A DNA stretch of 64,000 nucleotides from Alphaproteobacteria bacterium. Lineage in GTDB: Bacteria > Pseudomonadota > Alphaproteobacteria > RF32 > CAG-239. The notes below the pieces were generated by a model. It was not told where the DNA came from and ran no database searches. It saw only the letters and a list, made by a program, of their open reading frames with translations. Shown one piece after another: positions 14,629 to 40,975 of this stretch (positions are counted from its first letter, which is position 1; every line of letters begins with the position of its first letter). Position numbers and translations under genes: made by a program. The stretch lies in assembly GCA_045577985.1 (NCBI GenBank), contig JAZNJJ010000003.1, positions 87,192-151,191 on the forward strand. The letters are read 5' to 3'.

Positions 14629-14637
14629 GAGGGTATT

Positions 14638-18175: not shown

Positions 18176-18250
18176 GTTTTGGAAAAAAGATTTATTTTTA
18201 ATGAAAAATATGATACGATATTTTTAATTAAGTATTATAGGGAGGTTATC

Positions 18251-19255
18251 ATGATTATAGACATAAGAAAAATATTGTTCTTGGCTGTTGCAAGCCTAAT
18301 GATAACAACTCTTCCAATAAAGGAATGTGCATCATTTCCTCTGCCATCCGCGGATATAAAAAGAATGGTGGAAAATGCTAAAAAAACGTATAATCAGATA
18401 CTTGAGATTAAACAAGAAGTAGAAAGTAATATGCGTATCGTCCAAGAAATTCAAAATGGAGGATATGCAGCAGCAGCTGGTGATTTATTTGCAAAAATTC
18501 AAAATGGAGACTATGACCGATTCGGAGCTAACGTAAAGGGGGCTGTTCAAGGATTAAAACAAGGTGCAAAAGATGCTCAATATGCCGCAGCAGACAAAGA
18601 AAAAAGAGAAAAAATGGCTCAAGAAGAGGCTAATAAACTAGCACAGAAAAAGAAAGCTGAAGACCAAAAAGCTGAAGGCGAAGGTAAAGAGAAAACCGAA
18701 GAAAATATCGAAAAAGAGAAAGAGAATAAATTCAAAAAAGCTTATACTTGGTTAAAAGAGAGCAAGCTAGGTAAAGGTACAAAGTCTACATATAATTTCA
18801 TTAAAAATAATAGAACGCTGACATCTAGTGGATTGGCCGCTATAGAAGATGCACAGGAAGGAAACTGGGGAGATGCCGTGCTTAGAGCAGGGTATGGTGC
18901 AAGTAATATATATGGCATGGATGAAAATACTAGCGATTGGATTAGTAGTATTTCAACGATTGGTGGAACAGGTTATAATATAGGAACAAGTGGGGGGGAC
19001 GCACTTGATATGCTGAATGATGCCGTGAATAATAGTGCATTATGGGATAGTGCAGGATTCGTTAACGACGAATATTATGATTTTAGAGTAGAACAAGAAG
19101 AACAAGAAAAATTTGATGCTTGGCAAGAAGAACAACGTAAAAAACAAGCGGAAGAGTTTAATAAATGGAGTGAAGAACAAAAAAACAATACTCCAAGTTT
19201 TGGGGATGCACCATCCACTGACGATCTTACAGACAGTATGACATTTGATTTCTAA
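18251..19255 (+). CDS. Secreted coiled-coil protein (possible VirB5/TrbJ-like), triple G-[DN]-[YW] motif
   Basis: The ATG at 18251 follows AGGGAGG. It has a signal peptide, an N-terminal Q/N/E-rich helix (ADIKRMVENAKKTYNQILEIKQEVESN), and a K/E coiled coil. Motifs NGGYAAAAGDLFA, NGDYDRFGANVKGA and EGNWGDAVLRAGYGA are present. There is no internal TM. Confidence 0.4.
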   Translation: MIIDIRKILFLAVASLMITTLPIKECASFPLPSADIKRMVENAKKTYNQILEIKQEVESNMRIVQEIQNGGYAAAAGDLFAKIQNGDYDRFGANVKGAVQGLKQGAKDAQYAAADKEKREKMAQEEANKLAQKKKAEDQKAEGEGKEKTEENIEKEKENKFKKAYTWLKESKLGKGTKSTYNFIKNNRTLTSSGLAAIEDAQEGNWGDAVLRAGYGASNIYGMDENTSDWISSISTIGGTGYNIGTSGGDALDMLNDAVNNSALWDSAGFVNDEYYDFRVEQEEQEKFDAWQEEQRKKQAEEFNKWSEEQKNNTPSFGDAPSTDDLTDSMTFDF

Positions 19256-19279
19256 AGATAATAACCAAGGAGTAATAAT

Positions 19280-20959
19280 ATGACTAATACTTGTAAAAGA
19301 ATAATCAAGATGTTTGCTTTAGCAATTATTGCTATCTGTGGTTCATTATATTCTGTGCCATCAGAGGCTGCAGGTGAAGACGTTAATTATGACGGTTTGT
19401 ATAATGATCGACAAATTGTTCCAAACACAATGGCCATAATATGTAAAACAGATGCCGATGATATGGTTGCAGATGTTACAAGAGCATACAATTGTGTGAA
19501 TAAAATTGTAACCAAACTGAATAATTCAGATGCCTCTGTAAAGAAAGAAGGTAAGGATGATTTAGCCAGAATAAAATATGAAGAATTGAACAACATTTTA
19601 GGTATGGCTATTACCAAAAGTGCAACAATTTCTAATTATGAAGAAGTGCAAAACTCTATGATGGAAGCTAGCGCTCAAACTCAAACAGAACATGACGATA
19701 ATGCATCAATTGCAAATACAACAGCTGTTTTAACTGATGTTATTAATAGTATGCGAGATTTATATGCAGAAAAATTAAAATATCAAGCATTAGCAGGTAT
19801 TACAAGCATAGACCCGGGAGTTATTCAAGATTTTGAAACAGAGGGTAGTGAAGGTGATAATGGTGAAGATAATAATAGCGGAAATAGTGGAGAGGGAGAT
19901 ACTACACCAGGAGCCAGTGTTGAAGGTAGCTCAACAACTACTACCGCTACAAAAGAAGTTCCATTCCAAGGATATTTAAAGTGGGTTAGTGATAACCAAT
20001 GTGTAGAATTAGTTTGTACTGGAACAGATGAGTTAAGTAAAACGTGCCAAGAAAATTATCAAATTTGTCCTGATGGACGTTATTTAGACCCACATAACCC
20101 TAACATTGTTATTGCATGTGAAAGCGGATCTTGTACAGAGATTGATTTAAATCAAATATCGTCTACATCAAACCAAAATATTGAATATTCAAGTGGAAAT
20201 TATTGTAAATCAGGAAATTCTTTAATCAAATGTCCGGATGGTTTTTATAAACAAGGTTTAAATTGTTACGAATGTATGGGAGGATATTGTGCTCTATCTA
20301 TCTGTCCGGAAGGATTAAGAGAAGCTGAACAAAAAGCAAAAAATGATATGGAAGGAAAAGGTTATTTAGGTTCAAATGTGAGTACAGATAAGGTACTAGG
20401 AGCCGTTGATTATACAACAAGGTTGGTTGGCGGAGAAAATGCTGACACCGTAAATAGCATATTTAGCGGAATAATTAATAACACTGATCGCAAATTTTCT
20501 AATCCGAATAGCAGTTCTTTAGGTAGAACACCTACTTATTCAGGTAAAACAAAAGAAGAAAGAGATGCTGCAAATAAACGTAGTTCCGGTGATGCTAATT
20601 CAAGAAATAGTTCTAGCTCCAGAGACTCAAGAACAAGCGAAGCAATAAATGATACCAATAGTAGTAATAATTCTTCTCAACCAGATACAAAAACATTGAA
20701 TACAAATTTGAGAACGAATAGTGGAAATACAGTATTTACAATGGAAAATGATGGGAGCCAAAACGTATTTTTACCGGTTTCAGAAACATTGAATTTTGAC
20801 AAAGGTAATACGTCGGATAAAGATAATACGTCGGATAAAGGTAATACGTCTGATGCTACACCATCTACGAAAAACTCTGGTACAGATACAAAGCCAAAAT
20901 TAGATATTAGCGTTCCTAAGCCAACTTTGGTAGATTCAAAAGACGCATGGGCAATGTAG
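19280..20959 (+). CDS. Secreted Cys-rich protein with S/N-rich tail
   Basis: RBS AAGGAG and signal peptide ...VPSEAA/G. A cluster of about 16 Cys runs from CVELVCTG through CQENYQICPDG, ACESGSC, YCKSG, KCPDG, NCYECMGGYCALSICPEG. The tail is S/N/T/D-rich with a DKGNTS x3 repeat. Confidence 0.55.
   Translation: MTNTCKRIIKMFALAIIAICGSLYSVPSEAAGEDVNYDGLYNDRQIVPNTMAIICKTDADDMVADVTRAYNCVNKIVTKLNNSDASVKKEGKDDLARIKYEELNNILGMAITKSATISNYEEVQNSMMEASAQTQTEHDDNASIANTTAVLTDVINSMRDLYAEKLKYQALAGITSIDPGVIQDFETEGSEGDNGEDNNSGNSGEGDTTPGASVEGSSTTTTATKEVPFQGYLKWVSDNQCVELVCTGTDELSKTCQENYQICPDGRYLDPHNPNIVIACESGSCTEIDLNQISSTSNQNIEYSSGNYCKSGNSLIKCPDGFYKQGLNCYECMGGYCALSICPEGLREAEQKAKNDMEGKGYLGSNVSTDKVLGAVDYTTRLVGGENADTVNSIFSGIINNTDRKFSNPNSSSLGRTPTYSGKTKEERDAANKRSSGDANSRNSSSSRDSRTSEAINDTNSSNNSSQPDTKTLNTNLRTNSGNTVFTMENDGSQNVFLPVSETLNFDKGNTSDKDNTSDKGNTSDATPSTKNSGTDTKPKLDISVPKPTLVDSKDAWAM
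20798..20851 (+). repeat. 3 x 18-bp in-frame tandem repeat (DKGNTS/DKDNTS/DKGNTS)
   Basis: GACAAAGGTAATACGTCG / GATAAAGATAATACGTCG / GATAAAGGTAATACGTCT, read directly from the sequence. Confidence 0.9.
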
Positions 20960-20996
20960 GTACGTTTTATTATAATTATAAAGAGGGAGACTGAAT

Positions 20997-22310
20997 ATGA
21001 GAAAAAATATTGGAATAATATTCGCAATGATATTAGTCTTATACCCTCGTGTATCTAAAGCAGACCTCGATTTAGCGTCAATTGTACAAGATACGTTATC
21101 AACTGTACAAGAAAACGTTAACAAAATAGTGAAGCAATATACAGGTTTAGAGATAAATCTCCAAGAATTAGCAAAGAACAGAGATGCTCTTAAGGGCTTA
21201 AAAGATCAAGCTTTGCAATTAGCAAAAGATCAGGCTGCAGCTTTTGTATGTAATATAAAAGTATCGGATTTAAATTTGAAAGGAGTAAAGGATAAGATCA
21301 AAGGAAATCAGAGTACAGCAGAATTAAAAGCCGCCGTTCACGAAGAATACGTAAAAAAAGGTAAAGTATTGGATGATATAAAACAAGCAGAAGAACAAGT
21401 CGAAAAAAATAACCAATTAATGGCTGAAAACATTGCGGCAACATTTGCTAGATCGTTAGTCAACCGAAAAAAAATTATGGAAGAAGCTAAAACTTTAGAA
21501 AATGAAGAATCAAATGCTTTATCTGATTTACCTTCAATTATTGAAAGATATAAAACTATAAATGCTCGAGCCAATAGTCGTTGGCGTACTATTTTGGAGG
21601 CATCTGTAAGTTTTGAACAACAACTTGCTCAAGATGATATTATGCAGATGAAACTGCTAGATGAAGAAACTGCTTTAGAAACATTAAAACAAGCTCAAGA
21701 ACAGGCAGAAGCAACTCGTAGAGCTAGTGAAAAAAGAAGAGCTGAGAAGCAAAAGAAATCTATCAGTCTAGGCGAAATATATGGTGCCGGATCAAAATCT
21801 CTAGATGCCTTAGGCAGAGGCGATTATGCTGGAGCATTCGGAGCAGCAGTTAGCGGTTACACATCGTATTATGGTCATGATTGTCCTGAAGGTGATAAAG
21901 AATGTATAAGCACTGCTGAAAAATTAAATCGAATTTCTACGGGAGCATATGCAACACAAAATGCTTACAAAGATGCCGAGCTTGGTGATTATAAAGGTGC
22001 ATTGAGTGATTTAGCATATGGTGCTAGAAGAGCTGGAACAGAAGGTATGCAACAATATGGTACTGCTGTAGATGCTCTTCTTCGAGGAGATTATGTAACT
22101 GCAGCATCATACGGACTGGCATCAAGTAATTACTATGGAAATGGTCAATGCATAAAAGGTAATAATGTCGTTGCATGTGATGATGGAATATATGATTTAT
22201 TTAATGGTAAAGTCGTTGTATGTAAAGATCGTAAATGTGTAGAACAAGATGCACCAAAAGATGATAATAACAAAGGTTCCGATAAAGAAACAGAGGATAA
22301 GGAGCAATAA
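20997..22310 (+). CDS. Secreted coiled-coil protein, triple G-D-Y motif and Cys-rich C-terminus
   Basis: RBS GGGAGA, a signal peptide, and long heptad-like helices. Motifs RGDYAGAFGAAVSGY, LGDYKGALSDLAYGA and RGDYVTAASYGLA are present. The C-terminal cysteines are in CPEGDKEC, QCIKGNNVVACDDG and VCKDRKC. Confidence 0.5.
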   Translation: MRKNIGIIFAMILVLYPRVSKADLDLASIVQDTLSTVQENVNKIVKQYTGLEINLQELAKNRDALKGLKDQALQLAKDQAAAFVCNIKVSDLNLKGVKDKIKGNQSTAELKAAVHEEYVKKGKVLDDIKQAEEQVEKNNQLMAENIAATFARSLVNRKKIMEEAKTLENEESNALSDLPSIIERYKTINARANSRWRTILEASVSFEQQLAQDDIMQMKLLDEETALETLKQAQEQAEATRRASEKRRAEKQKKSISLGEIYGAGSKSLDALGRGDYAGAFGAAVSGYTSYYGHDCPEGDKECISTAEKLNRISTGAYATQNAYKDAELGDYKGALSDLAYGARRAGTEGMQQYGTAVDALLRGDYVTAASYGLASSNYYGNGQCIKGNNVVACDDGIYDLFNGKVVVCKDRKCVEQDAPKDDNNKGSDKETEDKEQ

Positions 22311-22311
22311 A

Positions 22312-23526
22312 ATGAGGAATATTCTTAAAAATTCTTTGATTTTAGCAGCAATTATGCAAATTGCTCTAACTTCTAATTCTCACGCAATTGTGAAGCTTGA
22401 TTTTCCCGGACCAATCTCTGATGCCATAAATCAAATACAAAAATTTGGCGAAGGTGTTGAACAAAAATATAATGCTGTGATGGAAACTTTAAATACAAAA
22501 GTACGTCAAGCTGTTGGAGCGGAAGGTGCCGCTTTATTTAGTGTATTTGTTAAAAAGATAGAAAGAAATGTTGTTAGAGGAGTTATAAATCAGGATTTCA
22601 GCGTAAACGGGTTATTTGGTGATGTAACTAATATGAAGTTAGATTATGCTACTTACAAGAATTTAGCAGAAGATTATTCAGGTGCACTACAAAAAGAAAA
22701 AATGAAAAAAAATCAAGATATAAATGCTGAAATAGCTAGATTGGAAGCCTTATATAAAGTCGAAAAAGACCCTGAAAAAATAGATGAAATATCTAAACAA
22801 ATTGCAGAATTACAAGCTCAAAAACAAGCAAACTTGAAACAACAATCATTAAGAGATGAAAAAATACAAGAATATCAAGAAAAGACAAGAACTCTTTCTA
22901 GTTCTCTACAAGACCTCAATGCTGCAACAGAGCATGAAGAAATATTAAAGAAATTAGAAAACAGATCTCGAGCAATGTTCGAAGAAGAGGAAGATCCTGA
23001 AGTTGAAAAACAAGAATTAGCCGGATTAGTACAAAAAGATATTTCAGAATTCTTTATTGCTGAATATGATCATGTTGGTAAGGATAACGTAAATAAAGTT
23101 ATGAAAGTTCGTAAAACAGAATACTACAAAGCATTCCTCAATATGTATAAATCAACGATAACAAGTGATAAGAAAACGCAAGAAATATCAGAAGATTCGG
23201 TAACCATGGTTGATACATCAACTCAAGAGGCAGATGGCTTATATGGTGCTATGGCAATGCGTATAGGTGCGGATATCCAAACGGCAAAAACAGCAGCCAG
23301 ATTTACAGAACTTTTACTTGCAGAAATTCGTTTCAATACAACACAAGATATGCAAACATGGCACGATAAGTATAAAATGTACGATTATGATAAAGATCCA
23401 ACCACGTTTAATTTAGATGATTATGTTTTGAAAGAAAAAGACTACAAACAAGATTTTGTATCTAAACAGATATCAAAGCAAAAGAATAGTATGTTGGATA
23501 AAATTAGTAATTGGCAAGGACTATAA
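22312..23526 (+). CDS. Secreted coiled-coil protein, unknown family
   Basis: The ATG at 22312 follows AAGGAGCAATAAA; the track start at 22249 overlaps the previous gene. Signal peptide ...SNSHA/I. The body is long and K/E/Q-rich and helical. There is no internal TM. Confidence 0.5.
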   Translation: MRNILKNSLILAAIMQIALTSNSHAIVKLDFPGPISDAINQIQKFGEGVEQKYNAVMETLNTKVRQAVGAEGAALFSVFVKKIERNVVRGVINQDFSVNGLFGDVTNMKLDYATYKNLAEDYSGALQKEKMKKNQDINAEIARLEALYKVEKDPEKIDEISKQIAELQAQKQANLKQQSLRDEKIQEYQEKTRTLSSSLQDLNAATEHEEILKKLENRSRAMFEEEEDPEVEKQELAGLVQKDISEFFIAEYDHVGKDNVNKVMKVRKTEYYKAFLNMYKSTITSDKKTQEISEDSVTMVDTSTQEADGLYGAMAMRIGADIQTAKTAARFTELLLAEIRFNTTQDMQTWHDKYKMYDYDKDPTTFNLDDYVLKEKDYKQDFVSKQISKQKNSMLDKISNWQGL

Positions 23527-23538
23527 GGAGAGACAGAC

Positions 23539-24585
23539 ATGAAAAAAATAGCATACATTACATTAATTCTGTTTCTCAATATCCTTATAATAAGACCAGC
23601 ACATGCAATCTGGCCTGATTTCACACCATTAATTCCCGTTGCTCCTCAATTATGTGTGATGTGTACTCCAGCTGCTATTACAGAGGTTTCAACAGCCATA
23701 CGGCAAGTTAACCAAATGCGTTCAAAATTTGATCAATTTACGAATATGAGTAGTTTGAAAAAAATGTTAGCTGATTATACAATGTCTATAGGAAAAGGAA
23801 TCTTAGGAGGAGCATTACAGAAGATTCGTTCCAAAAAACAAGTTATCTCTTATTCAAGAACAATAGAGGAATGTGAAGTAGCCGATATTACTAATGAAGC
23901 ATCCGTAAAACAAGCTTTTATGAAATTATTTTTACAGTATCCTTCTCGAAAAACAGAAATTATGGCTGCTTACAAGAGAAAAGGTGAACAGTTTAAGATT
24001 GATACAACTCTAGAAATGTATATTACTGCAAGAGAAATGGAAAAAGAGCTTAAACAAATGATCTCGGAATTGGATAATATTGAACGTTGCATTGTTGCCG
24101 GAGAGGATTGTAGTGAACAAGGAATGGAACAATATAACTGTCAGCAAAGTCCAGAAAGTGCAGAAGCTGCCGGAGATGGCGGAAATGAAGATAATTTATG
24201 CTTATGGAGAAATGCCGTAACCGCAGTTAGTTTATATGATAAAATTATGCGTTATAATGAATTTTTAATTGCAATGAATGCTCAATATCAAGCTGTAAAA
24301 GGAATTGATGAACGTGTTGCTATCATGAAATTTACAGATTTGGAAGAAGACCAAAAGAAACGAGGAGAAAAATTCCTACCTAAAGTACAAGATAATTTAT
24401 CTTCATCTATAGCAAAACCAAAAGGTTCCTCAGGAGGAGATCTTCCTGATAAAATAGATGTAAATATTCCTTTAGTTGTAAACACACCATCTTCAGCTGA
24501 ACATAATAGCTCTACAGTTGAAGAACAATCAGTTGTTGTAACAAATCCGGATTTTTACGTTACTCCGGATTATTTAAAGCAGTAA
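23539..24585 (+). CDS. Secreted helical protein (possible VirB5/TrbJ-like)
   Basis: RBS AAGGAGAG and signal peptide ...RPAHA/I. The N-terminus PLIPVAPQLCVMCTPAAITEVSTAIRQVNQMRSKFDQF resembles TrbJ/VirB5 N-termini by pattern only. Confidence 0.4.
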   Translation: MKKIAYITLILFLNILIIRPAHAIWPDFTPLIPVAPQLCVMCTPAAITEVSTAIRQVNQMRSKFDQFTNMSSLKKMLADYTMSIGKGILGGALQKIRSKKQVISYSRTIEECEVADITNEASVKQAFMKLFLQYPSRKTEIMAAYKRKGEQFKIDTTLEMYITAREMEKELKQMISELDNIERCIVAGEDCSEQGMEQYNCQQSPESAEAAGDGGNEDNLCLWRNAVTAVSLYDKIMRYNEFLIAMNAQYQAVKGIDERVAIMKFTDLEEDQKKRGEKFLPKVQDNLSSSIAKPKGSSGGDLPDKIDVNIPLVVNTPSSAEHNSSTVEEQSVVVTNPDFYVTPDYLKQ

Positions 24586-24607
24586 AGAACAAGTTGGGAG
24601 TAATAAA

Positions 24608-31382: not shown

Positions 31383-34300
31383 ATGAGTAAAGAGCCATTA
31401 ACACATTCGGACAGATATGTCCGCAAAACGAACAGAATAATTCTAATAATAGGAATTATAGCATTACTTGTTTTCCTATTTGGCTTAGCATTATTAAGTA
31501 CTGAAGAAGTCGAACAAGTTCAACGATATCAGGTTGAAACAGGTATTTCTGCGGAAACAAATTTTGGATTATCTTCGGAGGGAAGTAATGAAGCTGAAAT
31601 AGAATTTGATGATTCGGAAGAAATAGGTCGTCCAATAACAATGACACCAAATCCAATAAATATGGGGCAAGTTGTTTTAGGTAGTGATGCCACAAACGTT
31701 TTAACCATAGGTACAAATGGTAAGAGTGCAATTAAAATCATATCTGTAGAACTTGAAGAAGTTGCTTTTGAAGGATTTACATTTGAAACAAATTGTAAAG
31801 ACAAAGAATTAAGAGGTAAAATAACATGCAATGTTACAATGAAGTGGACACCAACAGTTGCAGCTAATGTTCAAAATAATTTCAAAATTATATGGCGAGA
31901 AACAAATGTCTCTGATAGCAATGCAAAACACGATGAAGTTCCTGTTTTTGGAAATTCAATTAGAAAGGAAGATTGCAATTTCTGCGATACTACAGGAGTT
32001 ACATCTGGAAATATAGCAATAGATTCAGGTAAAAATTCGCGTTTAGCTATTGGACCAGATGGAAGAGTTATCGGTACGATTGGTGAAGACGGTATAGTTC
32101 GAGATGCTAATGGAAATGAAATCGGTAGAGTTAATGCCGATGGTATGATAGTTGATAAAGATGGCAATATAATTGGAGTTGCTTCTACAGAAAAACTTAT
32201 AATGGATGAAAATGGCAATGTTATAGGTTATGTTGATGCTAACGGAGTTGCACACGATGTGGATGGAAATGTTATTGGAACAATGTTAGCAGATGGCACC
32301 ATTGTTGATGCAAACGGTAATAAAATTGGTAAAGCCGTGGATTCAGGATATGTATATGACGATAATGGCAACATCATTGGGCGAGTTTTATCAGACGGAT
32401 CTGTTATTGACTTAGATGGAAATGTTATTGGAAGAGTGAACGAAAACGGCGAGGTTGTCGATATGAATGGCAACAAGATTGGTCATGTGGCCAAATCTGG
32501 TGAAGTTGTTTTTGATGCCAATGGTAACGCTATTGGTGTTGTTATGCCAAATGGTGACGTAGTGAATGAAAATGGAGACGTTATTGGTAGAATAGATGAG
32601 AACGGTAATTTAATTACAAAACAAGTTATTGGAAAACGAGGATCCACCGCTCAGTTAGCAGTTGATGAAAATGGTAATGTCATTGGATACATAGATGGAA
32701 ACGGTAATGTTGTCGATTTCAATGGTAATATTATAGGAAAAGTAGATGAAAACGGAAATATTCTCGATAAAGATGGTAATATTATTGGAAAAGCCAGTGA
32801 AGAATGGATGGATTTAGCATTAGATGAAAATGGTAATGTCATTGGGTATATCGATAATGAAGGATTAGTACATAATAGTTCAGGAGAGGTTGTTGGTTAC
32901 GTAGATGAGAACGGCAATGTAATAGGTAATATTACTCAGCAAGAAATTATAGGAAAACAATTAGATATAGGCTCTGATCAAAATTTAGCTGTAGATGAGA
33001 ATGGTAATATAATAGGAACTATAGATGCCAATGGAAACGTACTCGATTCCCAAGGAAATATTATTGGTAGAGTAGATGAAAATGGTAATATAATTGATAA
33101 GGATGGCAATACCATTGGTAGAAGAGGATCAAGTCGACGTTTAGCAGTTGATGCAGATGGTAACGTCATTGGCTATATAGATGAAAAAGGTAATGTTATC
33201 GATTTTAATGGTAACATGATTGGAAAAGTTGATGAAAGTGGTAATATCATCGATAAAGATGGTAATATTATTGGAAAAGCAAGCAATGAAGCTCGAGATC
33301 TAGCTATAGATGAAAATGGTAATGTCATTGGGTATATAGATGAAAATGGTTTTGTTCATGGAGCAGATGGAACAATTGTTGGAAAAATGAATAAAGACGG
33401 AAGCATTGTAGATAATAATGGAAATGTCATAGGAAAAAGAAAAACAGGACCTTCAAAAGTAGCTGTAGATGAGAATGGTAATATAATAGGAATTATAGAT
33501 GCCAATGGAAACGTACTCGATTCTCAAGGAAATATTATTGGTAGAGTAGATGAAAATGGTAATATAATAAAAAATAATGAAAATGATACAAATAATCAAT
33601 TTATTGGAACGAAAGGACGCAATGTTCAATTAGCCGTGGACGAGAATGGTAATGTCATTGGCTATATAGATGAAAAAGGTAATGTTATTGATTTTAATGG
33701 TAATGTTATTGGAAAAGTTGATGAGAGCGGAAACATTATAGATGAAAATGGTAACATTATTGGAAAAAGAGGAGCTTTAGCGCAATTAGCGTTAGATAAA
33801 AATGGAAACGTTATAGGTTATGTTGATGCTAATGGAGTTACAAGAAATGCTAACGGACAAATCATTGGTATTGTGGATGTCGTTGGAAATATAAAAACAT
33901 TTGGAACCAAGATAAGTGGTGCAATGATCAATAGAAATTTATTACCGATAACTCCAAGTGGTAGTGTTCTTGGTTCAATTAATAACCGAGGAGAAGTTGT
34001 TAAAGATAATAAGGTTGTCGGGAAAATGCGTCCTAATGGAATAGTTACCGATATTTCTGGTGCGAGAGTTTTAGCAAAAGGCGTAAATCCTGGCTATATA
34101 GTTAATTGGGGTTGTGATTATAGTAAAAAATTGGATAAAGATGGAGTTGTACGGCAGGATGGAGCAGATACAAATTATAAAGTATTTGCAGATGGAACAG
34201 TCTGGTCTCCTGAAGGGCTTTTTGTAGGTAAAGTTATAAGAACAGGAAGTGTCTACGATAATAAGTGTAATTATGTCGGTGAGGCATCCGCAGATGGATA

Positions 34301-35813
34301 TGTCCGCGATTTAAACAATAAAGAAATTGGTTGTTTGAATCCAGATGGAACAGTATTAGGTTTAGACGAACCGAAAATAAAAGGACATTTAGTGAAAAGA
34401 CGTTCTGTTTATTCTATAGATTGGGATAAAATAGGTATCCTTGATGAAGACGGTAGCCTTCGAAATAAAGAAGGACGGTTAGTCGGTTGTGTTAATGATT
34501 ATGGTGATGTTTACGACAAAGATGGGGCTTATATAGGAACAACATCAAAATCGCATTATGCTTATAGCTTTGACGGAAAATTTTTAGGCTTTTTCGATGA
34601 GTATGGAGATATTTCAATACCAGGAATAGATGGTGCTCACGTATATTTGGATGATTTACTAGCTGATAAAAATAAAAATATTGTAGGGTATGCTGCTCCA
34701 GAAATAAATATTCTTATAGATGCTACAGGAAAAAAATTAGGTCATCTTTTTCCAGATGGAGTTGTTTATAACGATAACGGCGTTGCTATAGATAAAATAA
34801 ATGGAGGAAAATCTGGTTTCTATAGCGGAATTGCGGCAAAGTTTTTAAAAACAAATTATGTTATAGATATGGACGGCGTAAATATTGGTTTTGTTAATTA
34901 TGATCAAAATATTGTAAACAATAAAGGATCTATAATAGGAAAGATAAATTCAAAGGGACAACTATTTGATGATAATGGCCGTCAAATAGGAGGAGTTGTA
35001 AAACAAGGGGCTGTTCGCGGTTATGATGGGTCTTATCTAGGATATGTTATCCCAACAGGAGAAGTTATTGAATTAGAGACGGTTAAGAATAGTGGTGGGC
35101 AGGTTTATCAAAAAGGCGATATAACCGGTTATGTCGTTCCTGATGGGCGTATTGTAAAAGATGGTAACATAATAGGAGAAGTCCTTCCACAAAAAGTTAT
35201 GATTGATGTTTTAGGTAATTATGTCGGTTTTGCTAATGCTAAAGGTTTTGTTGTTGGAACTGATAATACATATATTTCCGTAATTTTACCAGGTGGTGTC
35301 TCTAATAAAAATATTGTTGCGTTACAAACTGGTTTTGTTATTGATTTTTCAGGCAATTTAATAGGGACAGTATTACCTACGGGACAATTTATGAATAATC
35401 AACATTACATTGCCGGAAGAGTTCTTTCTGATGGTAAGGTAATTAGCAACGAAGGTAAGTTGTTGGGAGAAGTTATTAGCGGAGATATAGTCATCGGCAA
35501 TGATGATAAAGTTTCTGGTTTTATTGGATTCGATGGGAAAATATATCAAAATGGTAGGCATATAGGAAAGATAATCACTGATGGCTTAGCAGTTGATAAT
35601 CAAAACAATATTATTGGACACACATACGTAATAGGAAACACTGTCTTATCAAATAGTGGTGAATACATAGGTCGATTAGCAGCAAATGGACGCGTTATTG
35701 AAAATAAGAACAAAGAAATTGGTTATATGAAGAGTAATGGTTCATTCATAGACGCAGATAAAAATGTTTCTGGATATATTTTACCTGAAGTAGCAAAAAG
35801 TCGGAGGAATTAA
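31383..35813 (+). CDS. Giant (1476 aa) membrane-anchored repeat protein (D-x-N-G-N-[VI]-I-G repeats)
   Basis: N-terminal TM IILIIGIIALLVFLFGLALL. A beta-sandwich-like segment follows (PINMGQVVLGSDATNVLTIGTNGKSAIKIISVEL...ITCNVTMKWTP), resembling the ASH/PapD-like pattern. More than 1200 aa of short G-x-x-I-G/D-x-N-G repeats come next, crisp in the first half and degenerate in the second. Confidence 0.8.
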   Translation: MSKEPLTHSDRYVRKTNRIILIIGIIALLVFLFGLALLSTEEVEQVQRYQVETGISAETNFGLSSEGSNEAEIEFDDSEEIGRPITMTPNPINMGQVVLGSDATNVLTIGTNGKSAIKIISVELEEVAFEGFTFETNCKDKELRGKITCNVTMKWTPTVAANVQNNFKIIWRETNVSDSNAKHDEVPVFGNSIRKEDCNFCDTTGVTSGNIAIDSGKNSRLAIGPDGRVIGTIGEDGIVRDANGNEIGRVNADGMIVDKDGNIIGVASTEKLIMDENGNVIGYVDANGVAHDVDGNVIGTMLADGTIVDANGNKIGKAVDSGYVYDDNGNIIGRVLSDGSVIDLDGNVIGRVNENGEVVDMNGNKIGHVAKSGEVVFDANGNAIGVVMPNGDVVNENGDVIGRIDENGNLITKQVIGKRGSTAQLAVDENGNVIGYIDGNGNVVDFNGNIIGKVDENGNILDKDGNIIGKASEEWMDLALDENGNVIGYIDNEGLVHNSSGEVVGYVDENGNVIGNITQQEIIGKQLDIGSDQNLAVDENGNIIGTIDANGNVLDSQGNIIGRVDENGNIIDKDGNTIGRRGSSRRLAVDADGNVIGYIDEKGNVIDFNGNMIGKVDESGNIIDKDGNIIGKASNEARDLAIDENGNVIGYIDENGFVHGADGTIVGKMNKDGSIVDNNGNVIGKRKTGPSKVAVDENGNIIGIIDANGNVLDSQGNIIGRVDENGNIIKNNENDTNNQFIGTKGRNVQLAVDENGNVIGYIDEKGNVIDFNGNVIGKVDESGNIIDENGNIIGKRGALAQLALDKNGNVIGYVDANGVTRNANGQIIGIVDVVGNIKTFGTKISGAMINRNLLPITPSGSVLGSINNRGEVVKDNKVVGKMRPNGIVTDISGARVLAKGVNPGYIVNWGCDYSKKLDKDGVVRQDGADTNYKVFADGTVWSPEGLFVGKVIRTGSVYDNKCNYVGEASADGYVRDLNNKEIGCLNPDGTVLGLDEPKIKGHLVKRRSVYSIDWDKIGILDEDGSLRNKEGRLVGCVNDYGDVYDKDGAYIGTTSKSHYAYSFDGKFLGFFDEYGDISIPGIDGAHVYLDDLLADKNKNIVGYAAPEINILIDATGKKLGHLFPDGVVYNDNGVAIDKINGGKSGFYSGIAAKFLKTNYVIDMDGVNIGFVNYDQNIVNNKGSIIGKINSKGQLFDDNGRQIGGVVKQGAVRGYDGSYLGYVIPTGEVIELETVKNSGGQVYQKGDITGYVVPDGRIVKDGNIIGEVLPQKVMIDVLGNYVGFANAKGFVVGTDNTYISVILPGGVSNKNIVALQTGFVIDFSGNLIGTVLPTGQFMNNQHYIAGRVLSDGKVISNEGKLLGEVISGDIVIGNDDKVSGFIGFDGKIYQNGRHIGKIITDGLAVDNQNNIIGHTYVIGNTVLSNSGEYIGRLAANGRVIENKNKEIGYMKSNGSFIDADKNVSGYILPEVAKSRRN
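32637..33900 (+). repeat. Higher-order coding repeat, about 2.5 copies of a module of about 162 aa (486-489 bp)
   Basis: The module landmark LAVD starts at 32655, 33141 and 33630. The sub-segments 32988..33093 and 33462..33567 differ at only about 2 positions by eye. Confidence 0.85.
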
Positions 35814-35818
35814 TTATA

Positions 35819-38800
35819 ATGGCTAAAACAAATAATTATATAAAAATTGCTCTAATAACTATAGTGTATATTTTGATTACTATTACCAGAGTAAGCGCGG
35901 CTGAAATAACAGCTGTAGACTTTCAGGGAAATATTATTGGTCAAGTTATTAGTACTGGTTTAGTTATAAATTCCAACGGTGAAAATATTGGTTCAATAAC
36001 AGCAGATAGTTTAATTATCAATGAAAATAATGAAATCATTGGCGGTGTTGTTCCTCAAGGAATTGCAATCGGTAATGATAATAGAATGCTTGGAAAAGTA
36101 CACAGTGATGGCGTTGTACGTAGTTTAAGTGGAAAAGTATTAGGTAAAGCTCTACCCAATGGTATTGCTGTTGATGATAATTTTACAATCATCGGTTCAA
36201 TTTTATTTCCAGGATTAATATATTCTTCTGAAGGTAAAACAATTGGTAGATTAACAGGTTCTGGAACATATACAAATTTGGATGGTCAGGAAATAGGATA
36301 TGTTTCTGCAAATGGGTATGCATATCGTAAAACAGGAGATGACTATGTTTTAGATGGAATATTAATATCATCTAAAATGGTAGTTTCTAACAATGGAAAA
36401 TTTATAGGAAGCATTTCTCCGTCAGGAAGAGTTATTGATTTTGAAGGAAAGGATATTGGTAATGTCCATGCAAATGATTATGTTTATAATGATGCACTAA
36501 AAGTTATCGGTAAGGTTGTTAGAACAGGTTACGCATTTGATTTATCAGGAAGATATATTGGAATAATTAGTTACAATGGTGCTGTTATTAATGGAGATAA
36601 AACAGTTGGTTTTTATCGTTCTGATGGGAAAATTATCAATGATAAAGAAACCGTTATTGGCTTTTCTGTTAACATATCTGCAACGGCAAATGACAATAAA
36701 GGAAAATATTTAGGAATATTAGTCCCTAATGGCTTGATTGTACGTGGTAAAGAAATAATCGGAAGAGCCGGAGCTAATAAATATGTATTTGATAGAGAAG
36801 GTAATAAAATCGGAGAAATTATTGAAACAGGTCCAATTTACGATGCTTTAGCGAAATTAAAAGGAGAAAGTATGCGTAATGGAAATATTGTTTCTTTAGG
36901 CGGTGGAGTCATCGGACAAATAAAAGGAAGATTTGCATACGATAGTAATGGTGTATTGATAGGTGGATTATCAAAGGATTTATTTGCCATTTCTTCAAAT
37001 AATAATCCTCTAGGTATTGTTGGTGTAGATGCTTCTATTCAAGATGGAGCAAATAAATCGAAAGCCTCTCCTTTTGGTTATGTATTTAATTCTGATGGAA
37101 AAATAATCGGACAGAATCATGAATTATTACCTATATATGGATTAGAAGGCCTTCTCTATTCATATGTTAATCCAAACGGGGAATTATATCGCAATATCTC
37201 TGATGTAAATATAACACAAACAGGTACCTTAATTGGAAAAAATGGATATATCGGAAATATTCTATCTCCATTATATGCTCTTAATTATGATGGAATACGC
37301 TTTGGTAATTTTGCGAATAATAATTTAATTATGAACAAAAAAGGTGGAATAGATTATAAAGTTATTCCCGGTAATTATGTTGTTGAATCGCAAGGCGCTC
37401 TCGATCAGAGATTAACGCCTATAAAAGGCTTCTCCGGAAATCGGCGAATAGCGTTAAATTTTGGCGGAGATTTATTAGGATACTCAAATAGCTCAGGTGA
37501 GGTTGTTGATTTAAATGGGAATATTTTGGGACATGTAATTTATGGGGAGTATGTTGTCGATAATAACAATTCCGTAATTGGACAATTAGTACCTTTTGTT
37601 ACAGTTAATAATGAAAAATGCCAAACACTTGGAATAATAAATGGTCAAGGAGAAATTCTTAACAATAGAGAAGTAGTTGTAGGAAAAATGCTACCAAATG
37701 GTCAGGTATTATCAGATGTTGGTAGTTATGTTGGTTATACTCTCTTCAATACAGGTCTAATAGATATAAACGGAAATTTTGTCGGTACTCAGAATTTAGG
37801 TGTAGGTGTAGATTTTAGTGGTAAGAATTTAGGTTGTGCAAATCGTAAAGGTTTAATTTATGACAACGATAACGCTCTAAAATATAGTGTGATAAATATG
37901 GAACCCGCAATAGATTTTGATAACAAAATTATAGGAAACATTATATCTAATGGAAGTATTGTTGATAATAACAATCAAATCATTGGTCATATGCAACCTA
38001 ATGGAGATGTTGTCTCTAAATCGAAAAAGGTACTTGGAAATGTAATGAAATATAAGGTTGCATTTAGCAATGATAATAAGTTTCTAGGAATGATACATCC
38101 TTCTGGAGAAGTATTAAATCAGAATGGAAATAAAGTGGGACATATAAATTTTGATGGAAGCATATCTTCTGATGGAGAAACAATTGGTTATGGATTATAT
38201 GACTTTTATGTATATGATGAAAACTTTATAACTTACGGATATATAACTAAAGATGGTACAATCTTGAATTTTTTGGGTAGTAAAGTTGGTAATATAGATA
38301 AAGGTTTTGTCGTTAACAAGAAAAAACAACTAGTTGCAAGAATTCATAGAGATTTCATTGTAAGGGATGTAAGTAATAATGCCGTCGGAGAATTACAATT
38401 AGATGGAAATATTGTAAATTTCTTGGGTGAAAACATCGGATATTTATCTGAAAGTGGAAGTATTTTAAATCCGGAAGGACAAGAAATCGCTAAGGCCACT
38501 CCTCTGCAGTATTACATTATACAAAGCCAAGAGCAATCAGAAAAAGAAGAAGATGAAGATTGGCAAAAGAATAATAAAAAAGTTCAGATAACTGATTATA
38601 AAGAAGAGGATAATATAACGAAAACTTCTGGGGAAATGTCTTCGGGAAGAAGAAAAATAGTAGGTATTGCAATAAGTCCGGACGGAGATGTTTTGGGTGA
38701 TATATATGATGACGAAAGTGTAAGAAATAAAGATGGCGAACAAATCGGTTTTCGTACTCCTGACGGTATTATTGTAGATATGAATCATAATACTATTGGT

Positions 38801-39991
38801 ATTGAGGATATTAAACATACATCAGCAAGTGAAATGTTTGTCCCAGCAGGTGCTTTTGGTCAAGGTAACCCATACGGCATAGGCTCTCAACCATCAAATT
38901 TAGGACCAGGAGGTGGATATGGACAAGGGGAACGATATGATCCCATAAGAGCAAACGCGCTTAACCAATTACAACAAGCTCGTCGAAGCGATATATCTGT
39001 AGGAAGAGTATCTACTAATGTAAAAATGTCTAATTTTACAGGCTATGAGGAAGATGGTTGGCCTGGTGTCGGTAAAAATATATCTACATGGAGAGTAGAT
39101 ATGAGCCAAATGATATTAGAAGATAAACCAATTCCTGCTGTATTATCTCGTTCTGTATACGCCTCAGAAGGATTTGGCAGTAACATTCCTGTAACAGCAA
39201 TTGTGGAGAGAAATATTTATGCTGAAGAAGGTCGAAATATCGTCATCCCAGCCGGCTCAAGAGTTATCGGTGCTTTAGGTGGAGAAGGTGGTACTGGTGG
39301 AAGCAGTGGTGGTGCTGTAAAGATTGGTATAAGCTGGCGTCGATTGATTCGTCCGGATGGTTCTCAGTTTACATTCGGAAATGCCCAAACAGCTGATTCT
39401 CAAGGTAGAGCTGGAGCAATTGGATATTTAGACGAACAATTACTGAAAAAATATACTATGCCAACTTTAACAACCATTGTTGAAAGTGCCACAGCTTATC
39501 TAACCGCAGCGGGAGAAGGAACTACAACATCAGACGGAGGTTCAACGGAAAGTTCCAAGAGCCAAGCTGCACAAGATGCACGTGATAATTTCTTAGAGCA
39601 AATGAATACAATATTTGATGATATAATGAATAGAAAAGCAAATATTCGTTCAGTTACATATATTCCTGCCGGTACAAGAATAATAATATTCCCTAATGAA
39701 GATTTATGGTTAAATGATGAAAAACGTGATAAAGAAAAAGAAGTTATAGACGAATATAGAGGAGGAAATTCAGGGCTTACAGAGAAAAGACCTGAGGCCG
39801 TAGGGTCAAGAGGTGGAGCTACGGTAACATATGATGGTACTTATAATGAAAATGTTCGTCCCGCAGGAGGAGGCTTGGTAGAAGAAACTCCTGCTCAAAA
39901 TCCTAATCGTAGAATAAGACAACTTCCTCCTGCCACAATACAACAAATGCCGGCAGAAGAAACTACAGATGATGTACCTGCTTTATTATAG
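35819..39991 (+). CDS. virB10: Giant (1390 aa) VirB10/TrbI-family protein with about 880 aa of N-terminal repeats
   Basis: RBS GGAGGA and N-terminal anchor IALITIVYILITITRVSA. Long G-x-x-I-G-x-V...G repeats are followed by an acidic/K-rich linker and a G/P-rich segment (GPGGGYGQGERYDP). The TrbI domain, about 39100..39710, reads IPAVLSRSVYASEG...VTAIVERNIYAEEGRNIVIPAGSRVIG...ISWRRLIRPDGSQFTF...ADSQGRAGAIGYLDEQ. Confidence 0.8.
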   Translation: MAKTNNYIKIALITIVYILITITRVSAAEITAVDFQGNIIGQVISTGLVINSNGENIGSITADSLIINENNEIIGGVVPQGIAIGNDNRMLGKVHSDGVVRSLSGKVLGKALPNGIAVDDNFTIIGSILFPGLIYSSEGKTIGRLTGSGTYTNLDGQEIGYVSANGYAYRKTGDDYVLDGILISSKMVVSNNGKFIGSISPSGRVIDFEGKDIGNVHANDYVYNDALKVIGKVVRTGYAFDLSGRYIGIISYNGAVINGDKTVGFYRSDGKIINDKETVIGFSVNISATANDNKGKYLGILVPNGLIVRGKEIIGRAGANKYVFDREGNKIGEIIETGPIYDALAKLKGESMRNGNIVSLGGGVIGQIKGRFAYDSNGVLIGGLSKDLFAISSNNNPLGIVGVDASIQDGANKSKASPFGYVFNSDGKIIGQNHELLPIYGLEGLLYSYVNPNGELYRNISDVNITQTGTLIGKNGYIGNILSPLYALNYDGIRFGNFANNNLIMNKKGGIDYKVIPGNYVVESQGALDQRLTPIKGFSGNRRIALNFGGDLLGYSNSSGEVVDLNGNILGHVIYGEYVVDNNNSVIGQLVPFVTVNNEKCQTLGIINGQGEILNNREVVVGKMLPNGQVLSDVGSYVGYTLFNTGLIDINGNFVGTQNLGVGVDFSGKNLGCANRKGLIYDNDNALKYSVINMEPAIDFDNKIIGNIISNGSIVDNNNQIIGHMQPNGDVVSKSKKVLGNVMKYKVAFSNDNKFLGMIHPSGEVLNQNGNKVGHINFDGSISSDGETIGYGLYDFYVYDENFITYGYITKDGTILNFLGSKVGNIDKGFVVNKKKQLVARIHRDFIVRDVSNNAVGELQLDGNIVNFLGENIGYLSESGSILNPEGQEIAKATPLQYYIIQSQEQSEKEEDEDWQKNNKKVQITDYKEEDNITKTSGEMSSGRRKIVGIAISPDGDVLGDIYDDESVRNKDGEQIGFRTPDGIIVDMNHNTIGIEDIKHTSASEMFVPAGAFGQGNPYGIGSQPSNLGPGGGYGQGERYDPIRANALNQLQQARRSDISVGRVSTNVKMSNFTGYEEDGWPGVGKNISTWRVDMSQMILEDKPIPAVLSRSVYASEGFGSNIPVTAIVERNIYAEEGRNIVIPAGSRVIGALGGEGGTGGSSGGAVKIGISWRRLIRPDGSQFTFGNAQTADSQGRAGAIGYLDEQLLKKYTMPTLTTIVESATAYLTAAGEGTTTSDGGSTESSKSQAAQDARDNFLEQMNTIFDDIMNRKANIRSVTYIPAGTRIIIFPNEDLWLNDEKRDKEKEVIDEYRGGNSGLTEKRPEAVGSRGGATVTYDGTYNENVRPAGGGLVEETPAQNPNRRIRQLPPATIQQMPAEETTDDVPALL

Positions 39992-40000
39992 GAGATAAAT

Positions 40001-40975
40001 ATGAGTGATTTTTCAGTATTAGAATCTGTTTTACGCCCATTATCCTATTGGTATACACAGGATAATTTGGAAGAAGTTGCCATAAATCGTGCCGGACAAA
40101 TATGGCTTCGTATGCGAGGCAAACGAGCATATCCGTGGGTGATGTATAAAGATGAGAAATTATCAAAAGAATATTTAACAGATTTATTATATATCATTGC
40201 TAATACTTATGAAATCAAATTTGATCCATTACAGGGATCACCATTAGTATATGCAACAATTCCTGGAGATCACCGTTTTTCAGCCATCTGTGGTAGAAAT
40301 ATCATGTATGATGAAGAGGATTTAACAGGAGGAATAGCCTTAACTATTCGTATTCATTCGGATGATGTAGCTTTTGGTCTTGAAGACTATGGAATGAGAC
40401 AAGGTGAGGCCTTAAAAAAATTAAATCCGCTAAAAGATATAAAAGTTCCTGATGATGCATATGAACGTTTATTGTTGTATATCAAAAGAGGAGAACATAT
40501 TCTAGTTAGTGGTGCTACTGCTACAGGTAAGACAACTTTCTTAAATAACTTGCTTAAAATATTAGATATACATAAACGTATCATAACAGTTGAAGATACT
40601 CGAGAATTAATAGTTCCACATCCTAATAGAGTTCATTTAGTTATGTCGCGTACAGATCAAACAAATGATATTGACTATGCAAAAATAATAGACCTTGTTG
40701 TGCGTTTTACACCAGACGCTATCATCGGCGGAGAGATTTCAACAAGTAATGCTAGTGGTATTTGGCAACTTATGGGATCTGGTCACGATAATTGTTTTGC
40801 AACGATTCACGCCGAAAGTTCTCAAGAAGCGTATCTCCAGTTTATAAAACGTATTATGGCATCAACAAATGGGGCTGTAAACGTTGAGCAAACACTAGAC
40901 GAAATGAAAAGAAAACTTCATGTTGTTCAGATTTGTAGAATGGGTAATCAGCGCGCAATTACAGAAGTAACCTAA
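40001..40975 (+). CDS. virB11: VirB11-family T4SS ATPase
   Basis: 324 aa. Walker A SGATATGKTT, VEDTRELIVPHPN, Walker B-like AIIGGEIS, His box GHDNCFATIHAES. RBS AGGAG. Confidence 0.9.
   Translation: MSDFSVLESVLRPLSYWYTQDNLEEVAINRAGQIWLRMRGKRAYPWVMYKDEKLSKEYLTDLLYIIANTYEIKFDPLQGSPLVYATIPGDHRFSAICGRNIMYDEEDLTGGIALTIRIHSDDVAFGLEDYGMRQGEALKKLNPLKDIKVPDDAYERLLLYIKRGEHILVSGATATGKTTFLNNLLKILDIHKRIITVEDTRELIVPHPNRVHLVMSRTDQTNDIDYAKIIDLVVRFTPDAIIGGEISTSNASGIWQLMGSGHDNCFATIHAESSQEAYLQFIKRIMASTNGAVNVEQTLDEMKRKLHVVQICRMGNQRAITEVT

Follow-up and report, generated by a model that had tools for sequence, protein, structure and literature searches.

Two adjacent giant genes in a type IV secretion locus of gut Alphaproteobacteria as a probable two-gene form of one hairpin-repeat VirB10

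[quoted passage not shown] Repeat-expanded versions of this subunit have otherwise come from two pathogen systems, Cag and Dot/Icm, in which the repeats are structurally unresolved and the existence of a collar is conjectural. The repeat-rich regions of DotG and CagY have been proposed to form a 13-fold periplasmic collar that is absent from minimal systems (bioRxiv 10.1101/2023.03.22.533729). Here we analyze a 64,000-nucleotide stretch of an alphaproteobacterial genome (assembly GCA_045577985.1, contig JAZNJJ010000003.1, positions 87,192 to 151,191; hereafter the window), in which two giant open reading frames (ORFs) lie 5 nt apart on the + strand, between virB9 and virB11 of a VirB-type operon. 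For convenience the gene of the first ORF is called repA, and its protein RepA; the second ORF is VirB10. The two are listed here, and the evidence below points to their being two parts of one giant VirB10.

31383..35813, + strand: RepA, 1476 aa, inner-membrane-anchored hairpin-repeat protein (ORF; Bflower_2 3e-77, Bflower 3e-37, DUF3659 3.5e-36)
35819..39991, + strand: VirB10, 1390 aa (ORF; Pfam TrbI 5.5e-29, Bflower_2 1.4e-51)

A preliminary description of this DNA, made from the sequence without database searches, had proposed that the two adjacent giant proteins share a repeat, and motif counts bear this out. RepA contains the motif [DNEQS]x[DNEQKSG]Gxx[IVLFM]G 43 times and VirB10 contains it 22 times, as compared with 1.5 and 1.0 times in shuffled sequences. 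Glycine autocorrelation is maximal at a lag of 17 (100 in RepA against 31 expected, and 61 in VirB10 against 18), with a second peak at lag 34, and at the DNA level Tandem Repeats Finder detects periodicities of 51 and 159 nt within RepA. The repeat unit is 17 residues (51 nt) long and comprises one β-hairpin with two tight turns; the 8–11 residues first assigned to it correspond to half a unit. Its consensus is D-x-N-G-N-[VI]-I-G-x-[VI]-D-x-x-G-x-[VI]-[VI]. With a profile hidden Markov model (HMM) of the unit, 45 significant units were found in RepA, where they are crisp and spaced by exactly 17 aa at residues 225–840 and degenerate at residues 859–1460, and 9 were found in VirB10, whose units are degenerate. 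Repeats account for ~2150 residues over the two proteins, against the ~2300 originally estimated, and the hairpin repeat is absent from every other ORF of the window.

The repeat had been likened to those of uncharacterised families, but by Pfam score it falls within the curated β-flower (PF21785/PF21784, clan CL0395) and DUF3659 families. Bflower_2 (PF21785, cut-off 38) gives 256 bits with RepA and 173.5 bits with VirB10, Bflower (PF21784, cut-off 25) gives 127.9 and 32.3 bits, and both proteins pass the DUF3659 threshold. The β-flower families were made in 2023 from a fold in the AlphaFold database (Durairaj et al. 2023; PMC10584680). The fold is a small, shallow, closed barrel of 8, 10 or 12 very short antiparallel strands with 4-, 5- or 6-fold symmetry; it belongs to the Tubby clan, and the tips of its hairpins have [DNEQ]xxG as a semi-conserved motif (PMC10584680). 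The same feature is present in the unit consensus described here, as D-x-N-G...D-x-x-G.

Calcium-loop, RTX, pentapeptide, DotG and CagY repeat identities were ruled out by motif counts and Pfam. Neither protein matches a Pfam family of the pentapeptide, CagY-repeat, dockerin, FG-GAP or RTX kind at E ≤ 0.01. The motifs DxDxDG, Dx[DN]G[DN]G and GGxGxD are found zero times in RepA and VirB10, as is the DotG 10-mer [KR]xAG[FY][STND]xxx[LI], and the pentapeptide motif [STAV][DN][LF][STR]G is missing from RepA and has 2 isolated matches in VirB10. A comparison of the repeat sequences with the sequences in the PDB gave no match. The preliminary description was therefore right to place the repeat in neither the CagY nor the DotG/pentapeptide type, and its likening of the D/N/G turn to calcium-binding loops finds no support in the motif counts. 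Among 70 orthologues, 59 of the 108 invariant positions of the VirB10 array are Gly, and 68% of Gly residues in the array are at least 90% conserved, whereas the share is 29% for Asp and 8% for Asn. Asn-Gly and Asp-Gly are classic tight-turn dipeptides. Given this turn preference and the Gly-biased pattern of conservation, the D/N/G signature is best read as turn geometry rather than as a metal site.

Profile comparisons identify the second giant protein as a genuine VirB10, as had been proposed. It matches Pfam TrbI (PF03743) with 101.8 bits against a cut-off of 35, over profile positions 2–188 of 188, and a profile of 24 orthologues matches ComB10 (2bhv, 5.6e-27) as well as CagY, TrwE, Xanthomonas citri VirB10 and TraF in the PDB, with values of 2e-7 to 4e-9 for the barrel profile against CagY structures. 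The NCBIfam equivalog cut-offs for VirB10 were not reached (85.9 vs 220), and the protein is thus a divergent member of the family. From its N-terminus onward it is made up as follows.

35819..35902, + strand: signal-peptide-like N-terminus (residues 1–28; ...TRVSA|AEITAV), with a helix at 2–21 and a dip in the predicted local distance difference test score (pLDDT) at 23–28
35903..38503, + strand: fixed hairpin array (residues 29–895), ~50 hairpins, invariant Cys601/Cys673
38504..38653, + strand: acidic disordered linker (residues 896–945), pLDDT < 50 at 904–944, 21% identity
38654..38818, + strand: three extra hairpins (residues 946–1000), six strands in the model, unit HMM match at 970–986
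38819..39070, + strand: G/P-rich segment (residues 1001–1084), G+P 25%, 60% identity among orthologues
39071..39718, + strand: TrbI/VirB10 β-barrel domain (residues 1085–1300), Pfam TrbI at residues 1099–1298

The acidic linker and the G/P-rich segment are both present where the preliminary description had them, and the latter corresponds to the region that is rich in proline in ordinary VirB10. The tail that follows the barrel (residues 1301–1390) is poorly conserved. Across 24 orthologues with 42–64% identity, the 867-residue array has a gap fraction of 0.000, and identity within its first part, residues 29–300, is 65% among orthologues as compared with 68% for the barrel. The N-terminal sequence, MAKTNNYIKIALITIVYILITITRVSA|AEITAV, had been taken for an anchor; its features are those of a Sec signal peptide. 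Identity here is 19%, yet a hydrophobic core and a small-x-small site are always kept, and the site is followed by a conserved mature start, A[AQ]EITAIDFNG. Residues 1–28 are probably a cleavable Sec signal peptide and not an anchor, in which case the semi-tryptic N-terminal peptide of the cleaved protein would be expected to read AEITAVDFQGNIIGQ... The span of the envelope by one chain, with an inner-membrane helix at one end and a barrel at the other, is not a property of the window VirB10; the tail and the transmembrane helix are on RepA, the parts of which are listed next.

31437..31493, + strand: transmembrane helix (residues 19–37) following a cytoplasmic tail (residues 1–18), by Kyte-Doolittle scan; RYVRKTNR-IILIIGIIALLVFLFGLALL; conserved in orthologues
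31638..31982, + strand: ASH/Ig-like β-sandwich (~residues 86–200, ~115 residues) with four invariant Cys, 138/149 and CxxC 198/201
32055..33902, + strand: crisp array (residues 225–840), ~33 units, the length-variable part (unit HMM, Tandem Repeats Finder)
33957..35762, + strand: degenerate array (residues 859–1460), length-conserved, invariant Cys 911, 962, 984 and 1036, AlphaFold2 pLDDT ~90

RepA has an N-in topology, with a basic tail and a single transmembrane helix, and the helix is followed by an acidic spacer and then by the ASH-like domain. Both the helix and the ASH-like segment had been noticed at the outset. PF15780 (ASH) gives 20.5 bits with the window protein, below the cut-off of 27 (E 5.6e-4), and is matched by 18 of 19 homologues at E ≤ 0.1 (best E 4.4e-7); the same region matches NCBIfam choice-of-anchor D (1.6e-4) and gives a weak PDB profile match to an Ig domain of CFAP74 (1.6e-3). 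The crisp array is organized in super-repeats of 53 aa (three hairpins) and ~162 aa, and ~50% of residues 421–840 are gaps among orthologues. The last 76 residues of the protein are 66% identical among orthologues. The number of Cys residues is even in both giant proteins, and all of them (the 8 listed for RepA, and 601/673 of VirB10) are invariant among orthologues, which fits disulfide-bonded extracytoplasmic proteins. At the DNA level, GC skew rises to as much as +0.45 within repA (positions 32001–36000) compared with ~0.15–0.25 in neighboring genes, because the codons of the repeat (GAT/AAT/GGN/ATT) are G-rich and C-poor.

A scan of one genome per species, with an alignment as the query, found a relative in 169 species, and 80 loci were fetched. 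Both genes are whole in 68 of these loci, and the order VirB9-RepA-VirB10 is kept in all 68; the remaining 12 end at a contig edge upstream of VirB10. VirB11 comes after VirB10 in 79 of the 80, the VirB8, VirB8 flank is as in the window wherever the contig extends that far, and VirB10 ranges from 1385 to 1542 aa. A homologue search likewise returned more than 120 clusters of VirB10 of 1385–1425 aa, identical in architecture and with 40–62% sequence identity. When RepA was searched, ~90 clusters of single chains of 2000–2480 aa were recovered that contain both hairpin repeats and a TrbI domain, so that the survey of VirB10 homologues suggested in the preliminary description turned up split and single-chain architectures alike. 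Two loci of single-chain relatives (L081 and L083) have the order VirB8-(small ORF)-VirB8-VirB9-giant VirB10-VirB11, with no separate RepA.

The single chains join an N-terminus of the RepA type to a C-terminus of the VirB10 type. Residues 1–215 of RepA align with residues 1–201 of one of them, P0184 (32% identity, E 5e-20), and residues 31–1327 of the window VirB10 are colinear with residues 802–2237 of the same protein. A RepA-type N-terminus, consisting of transmembrane helix and ASH-like domain, is present in 88 of 90 single-chain proteins; it is missing from 134 of 135 split-type VirB10s, which start with a signal-like peptide. A chimera made from the last 150 residues of RepA and the first 150 mature residues of VirB10 aligns unbroken over the junction to 90 of 90 single-chain proteins, with the 8-residue tail of RepA as the sole gap. 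By these alignments RepA and VirB10 together represent a single giant VirB10 encoded by two genes, and the idea that the locus carries a split VirB10 N-region is strongly supported by the comparison.

To place the two forms relative to ordinary VirB10, the barrel domain was searched against 1.8 billion representatives. All matches of at least 158 bits are long proteins or their fragments. Those below 135 bits are mostly ~400–630 aa in length, with a few reaching ~820 aa and the exception of one divergent protein of 1498 aa, and the short ones contain no significant repeat units, apart from one with a single weak unit. The nearest normal-length VirB10 relatives include one from Microvirga. In a neighbor-joining tree of the barrel, the single-chain forms make up a paraphyletic grade inside which the split forms are nested, and proteins of normal length (512–627 aa) fall outside. 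Since a single chain carries both anchor and barrel in ordinary VirB10, parsimony favors fission over fusion, and we provisionally regard the single chain as ancestral. On present evidence, that RepA and VirB10 are the products of gene fission in a clade-specific giant VirB10 is the explanation we favor, with a confidence somewhat better than even.

We used AlphaFold2 to model residues 1–1000 of VirB10 (70-sequence alignment) and residues 292–1476 of RepA; the ASH-like domain lies outside both models. The VirB10 model has a mean pLDDT of 89.8 (~90–96 in the array) and a predicted template modeling score (pTM) of 0.83. Between residues 30 and 892 it contains 101 short strands (~50 hairpins), in which lengths of ~5 and ~3 residues alternate, and these are followed by a disordered stretch at 904–944 and three hairpins at 947–997. 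The RepA model (pLDDT 81.9, rising to ~90 in the degenerate C-terminal 600 residues; pTM 0.68) has the same rhythm as that of VirB10, and in its crisp part strands of 13–14 residues are placed between three-hairpin modules. High pTM over 1000–1200 residues indicates one defined rigid body rather than independent beads, and the models thus argue for each array being a single rigid body and not beads on a string. Locally, the modeled hairpins appear to pack in an Rhs/YD-like manner, whereas the predicted global shape seems to have no counterpart among solved structures. The modeling proposed in the preliminary description therefore gave confident β-hairpin arrays on the one hand and, on the other, no global PDB counterpart (template modeling scores, or TM-scores, of ~0.1). 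No β-flower entry was present in the PDB for matching.

In the explanation we propose, the linker of VirB10 would have been exchanged in this clade for ~100 or more 17-residue hairpins, with an ASH-like Ig domain beside the membrane helix. The chain would then have been cut in the lineage of the window. RepA would have retained the tail, the transmembrane helix, the ASH-like domain and the length-variable array; VirB10, exported separately by means of a Sec signal peptide, would have retained the ~50-hairpin array, the acidic linker, the three hairpins, the G/P-rich segment and the barrel. RepA would then supply the anchor in the inner membrane and VirB10 the barrel in the outer one. RepA's conserved hairpins at the C-terminus and the conserved mature N-terminus of VirB10 might re-associate non-covalently, for example by continuing one β-sheet, so that the bridge from inner to outer membrane would be rebuilt from two polypeptides. 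Residues 29–300 of VirB10 and the last 76 residues of RepA, both strongly conserved, form a possible interface. By analogy with the DotG and CagY collar, the arrays of ~14 copies could build a rigid periplasmic collar or cage round the secretion channel, and the barrel would gain some mobility from the flexible acidic linker that precedes the final three hairpins and from the G/P-rich segment. Taken to its full extent, the proposal is that VirB10, otherwise seen as a one-chain mechanical and energy transducer linking the two membranes, exists here as two polypeptides held together only by a self-complementing hairpin array, of which ~14 pairs with ~120 hairpins each would make up a rigid multi-megadalton cage or collar round the channel. 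Its fold would have no solved structure, and it would be common in Alphaproteobacteria of the human gut and the rumen. We advance this larger picture tentatively, as a possibility that may well prove incorrect.

Several points count against the proposed explanation. The models were read by secondary structure, pLDDT and pTM, and a rod, a spiral tube, stacked barrels and a shell are all compatible with what was read. The likeness found with Foldseek is local, with TM-scores of 0.08–0.11 and root-mean-square deviations (RMSD) of ~30 Å for the PDB matches. We infer the cleavage of VirB10 from its N-terminal sequence, and the ~16-residue hydrophobic stretch could be an uncleaved anchor; the association of RepA with VirB10 is likewise proposed from sequence. 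Hairpins of the split and single-chain forms align in many registers with similar scores (e.g. 124, 106 and 100 bits), so that the exact point of fission cannot be placed and the orthology of single hairpins is ambiguous. The polarity of the fission is derived from an unbootstrapped neighbor-joining tree with fragments interspersed, plus parsimony. Finally, neither a VirB6/TrbL homologue, looked for by Pfam at E ≤ 5 and by hydropathy among the six ORFs at 18179–27880, nor, with 40972–64000 included, a VirD4/TraG coupling protein was found in the window, so that the machine may not be complete.

RepA could instead be a surface-exposed or variable module, such as an adhesin or a CagY-like antigenic rheostat, and not a structural half of VirB10; the secretion system would then be tuned or disguised by recombination between the crisp repeats. 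Its crisp region contains tandem repeats at the DNA level, of 51 and 159 nt, and is strongly acidic (net charge −52); between species its length varies from 1044 up to 3151 aa, in step with the number of units (r = 0.88); and the four VirB2 pilin paralogues encoded upstream hint at surface diversification. Among close relatives, however, RepA lengths are equal. The difference is 0 where VirB10 is at least 95% identical and has a median of 1 aa at 85–95%, and RepA of a second strain (L084) is of equal length, with 7 substitutions and no indel. Because length is constant in close relatives and diverges only at deeper distances, it varies between species and is not hypervariable, and a CagY-like hypervariable repeat number was rejected for RepA on this basis. 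A surface module also sits poorly with the transmembrane helix and basic tail of RepA, in which neither Pfam nor hydropathy reveals an outer-membrane or autotransporter domain, and with the finding that the RepA N-terminus is covalently part of VirB10 in sister lineages. We consider this interpretation unlikely.

If the arrays were instead discrete, closed β-flower barrels, they might bind or shuttle lipids or peptidoglycan and tether the machine to membranes or to the cell wall. Bflower_2 is matched in 12 stretches of ~95 aa in RepA and 7 in VirB10, the crisp part of RepA is modular, with long strands between three-hairpin blocks, and the neighboring VirB9 has a weak match to the peptidoglycan-binding SPOR domain. 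For independent beads, on the other hand, pTM values as high as 0.83 over 1000 residues and 0.68 over 1185 would be unusual, the hairpin is 17 aa long as compared with ~19–20 aa in the described 5-fold flower, and the central hydrophobic helix typical of many β-flowers is not seen in either model. Independent barrels of this kind are, in our estimation, quite improbable.

A further reading takes its lead from the Foldseek comparison with the PDB, in which the top matches are Rhs effectors, teneurin and the BC shells of Tc toxins (8qjb_A, 1e-24; 8uy4_A, 4e-37; probabilities 0.95–0.99). The arrays would in that case be an Rhs/YD-type closed shell, or cocoon, enclosing cargo or part of the channel, and the strictly fixed size of the VirB10 array would agree with this. 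RepA also has weak matches to RHS_repeat (PF05593; 3.4e-15 for the whole protein) and YD_repeat_2x (TIGR01643; 5e-10, NCBIfam). No single stretch of RepA is significant for RHS_repeat, though, and VirB10 does not match it; the Y-x-Y-D-x-x-G core occurs once; and Pfam and NCBIfam show no Rhs-associated core, autoprotease or toxin domain. As the global shapes also fail to superpose at the TM-scores and RMSD given above, a closed shell is highly improbable.

The boundary between the two genes is given here.

35803..35821, + strand: gene junction, with a GGAGG Shine-Dalgarno sequence at 35803–35807, a TAA stop at 35811–35813 and an ATG at 35819

It reads ...AAA AGT CGG AGG AAT TAA ttata ATG, with GGAGG inside the last codons of RepA and 11 nt before the start of VirB10, and it is identical in three independent assemblies of one species (L084–L086) that differ elsewhere by 0.7–1%. 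Two of these, the short-read assemblies L085 and L086, end within RepA, which is the kind of behavior that a single gene broken by assembly or sequencing error, or a misassembled repeat, might produce; the identical stop–Shine-Dalgarno–start junction, the separate ORFs in 68 of 68 loci with both genes whole, from different species, and the signal-like peptide that split-type VirB10s have of their own (134 of 135) leave that explanation practically no chance, and the two genes of the preliminary description stand.

We favor, then, the fission of a giant VirB10, and turn to the genes around it, which include those of a VirB-type operon and, beside it, a second envelope machine.

13012–15009, + strand: four tandem VirB2/TrbC pilin paralogues (132, 134, 132 and 123 aa)
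15022–15462: ORF of 146 aa upstream of VirB4, with neither a family match nor a hydrophobic segment
15746–18175, + strand: VirB4, 809 aa, two hydrophobic segments in the first 40 residues
18179–27880, + strand: six consecutive ORFs in the VirB4–VirB8 gap (358, 559, 437, 425, 348 and 1090 aa)
27896–28651, + strand: VirB8, first copy
~28797–28985, + strand: small lipoprotein-like ORF between the two VirB8 paralogues, the VirB7 position; signal MYKKILIFALFLILSAC...
28999–29739, + strand: VirB8, second copy
29757–31376, + strand: VirB9, 539 aa, adjoining RepA upstream; Pfam CagX 2.2e-10
40001–40975, + strand: VirB11 ATPase, adjoining VirB10 downstream; Pfam T2SSE 9.6e-25
8772–10400, − strand: secretin; Pfam Secretin 6e-17
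4161–5948, − strand: T2SSE-family ATPase; 2e-65

The fourfold VirB2 recalls the pilin amplification of Anaplasmataceae and of Bartonella Trw systems. The hydrophobic segments at the N-terminus of VirB4 are possibly a fused VirB3. For the six ORFs at 18179–27880, Pfam and NCBIfam gave no match at a threshold as loose as E ≤ 5, and no VirB5 homologue is recognizable among them. They are not polytopic: in five of them one hydrophobic segment lies at the N-terminus, and the sixth lacks any. Homologues of the 1090-aa ORF occupy the equivalent position in related loci; a VirB6-like role was considered for this ORF and dropped, as it has neither a TrbL/VirB6 Pfam match at E ≤ 5 nor a polytopic hydropathy profile. 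The single-chain relative L083 has a VirD4-like gene (T4SS-DNA_transf) on the opposite strand, at a distance of ~10 kb upstream. The small lipoprotein-like ORF has no family match, and an ORF of 58–78 aa is found at the same position in L081–L084. VirB9 is unusually long, with a C-terminal extension of ~200 residues that ends in the weak SPOR match mentioned above (E 8e-4, 20.1 bits against a cut-off of 21); a similarly weak SPOR match is present in the L082 orthologue, and VirB9 orthologues reach 708 aa in the loci with the longest RepA. Some of the loci (L027, L032 and L049) have, immediately downstream of VirB11, an extra unmatched ORF of 1355–1840 aa that is missing from the window.

The second envelope machine adjoins the T4SS at 3030–12687 on the − strand and includes several unmatched ORFs in addition to the secretin and ATPase. 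By gene content this cluster resembles one for type II secretion, a type IV pilus or a Tad-like apparatus. Downstream of VirB11, on the other strand, lie ysxC, yidC and rnpA, and farther on gyrB and an anaerobic ribonucleotide reductase; these neighbors indicate that the locus is chromosomal and that the host is an anaerobe.

By record title, nearly all of the 80 loci come from metagenome-assembled genomes of uncultured Alphaproteobacteria or Proteobacteria. Their sources are the gut or rumen of humans (including Hadza, Nepal and Brazil cohorts), mouse, rabbit, horse, yak, deer, goat, sheep and cattle, and the carriers are low-GC gut Alphaproteobacteria that we take to be the GTDB order RF32. 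Five contigs (L005, L010, L019, L046 and L060) are titled Ruminococcus gnavus, Bacteroidaceae, Lachnospiraceae or Lactobacillaceae and are probably mis-binned or mislabeled public contigs. The preliminary description had called this an undescribed elaboration of the T4SS. That stands insofar as no paper on a split or hairpin-repeat-expanded VirB10 was found in the searchable literature, and needs qualifying in that such proteins are already in public databases from well over 100 species, under generic names such as "TrbI/VirB10 family protein", "DUF3659 domain-containing protein" and "hypothetical protein".

The split bears on the model of VirB10 as a continuous, TonB-like transducer that runs from the inner-membrane ATPases to the outer-membrane gate. 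If the two-gene reading is correct, the locus would be a natural experiment on whether signals can be transmitted by a VirB10 that is not covalently continuous. As material for study, the clade offers a pLDDT of ~90 over 870 residues, one fixed and one variable array, and natural single-chain and split versions of the same subunit. The carriers are widespread and uncultured inhabitants of the gut of humans, mice, horses and ruminants, with a relative found in 169 species-level genomes, and the conservation of a chromosomal T4SS among them suggests an unrecognized contact-dependent interaction in gut ecosystems. The β-flower/DUF3659 repeat, which has been without a known function, also gains a first clear functional context.

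The locus can be set beside several known systems. In the β-flowers already described, ~96 residues form closed barrels of 8–12 strands (PMC10584680); the repeat studied here resembles them in scoring over threshold, in having [DNEQ]xxG at the hairpin tips and in its very short strands, and differs in that 50–70 hairpins follow one another in one chain, which either is joined to a subunit of the T4SS core or has such a subunit as its partner. Rhs/YD shells have similar local hairpin packing, but their repeat is ~20–22 aa long and not 17 aa, the global structures do not superpose (TM-score ~0.1), and the core, autoprotease and toxin of those proteins are lacking here.

The closest functional comparisons are with the two repeat-expanded VirB10 proteins of pathogens. 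The T4SS of Helicobacter pylori is likewise an expanded one, and in its CagY (Cag7) over 1000 residues of repeats precede a VirB10 barrel. The CagY repeats belong to another family, with no CagY-repeat Pfam match in the proteins described here, and CagY is a single chain. Its repeats are α-helical and Cys-containing, of the DC-EC type, and their copy number shifts rapidly within strains; the length of RepA, unlike this rapidly changing repeat number, is stable among close relatives. DotG (IcmE) of Legionella and Coxiella likewise has repeats between an inner-membrane anchor and a VirB10 barrel, and their number varies between species. Those repeats are pentapeptide-like and 10 aa long, with a motif that is absent here, and DotG is a single chain of a type IVB system, as opposed to the VirB-type operon of the window. 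Models of the DotG repeats are of low confidence (10.1101/2023.03.22.533729), in contrast to the confidently predicted 17-aa hairpin. Nearest of all are the single-chain giant VirB10 proteins (e.g. MBP5533925.1, 2331 aa), which share the type of N-terminus, the hairpin repeat, the barrel and the position in the operon; they are one polypeptide, where the lineage of the window has two genes, the second with its own signal-like peptide. We suggest that the clade, in both its forms, is a third and independently evolved enlargement of the T4SS core, tractable by structural means and, on the proposal above, distinct in structure from those of Cag and Dot/Icm.

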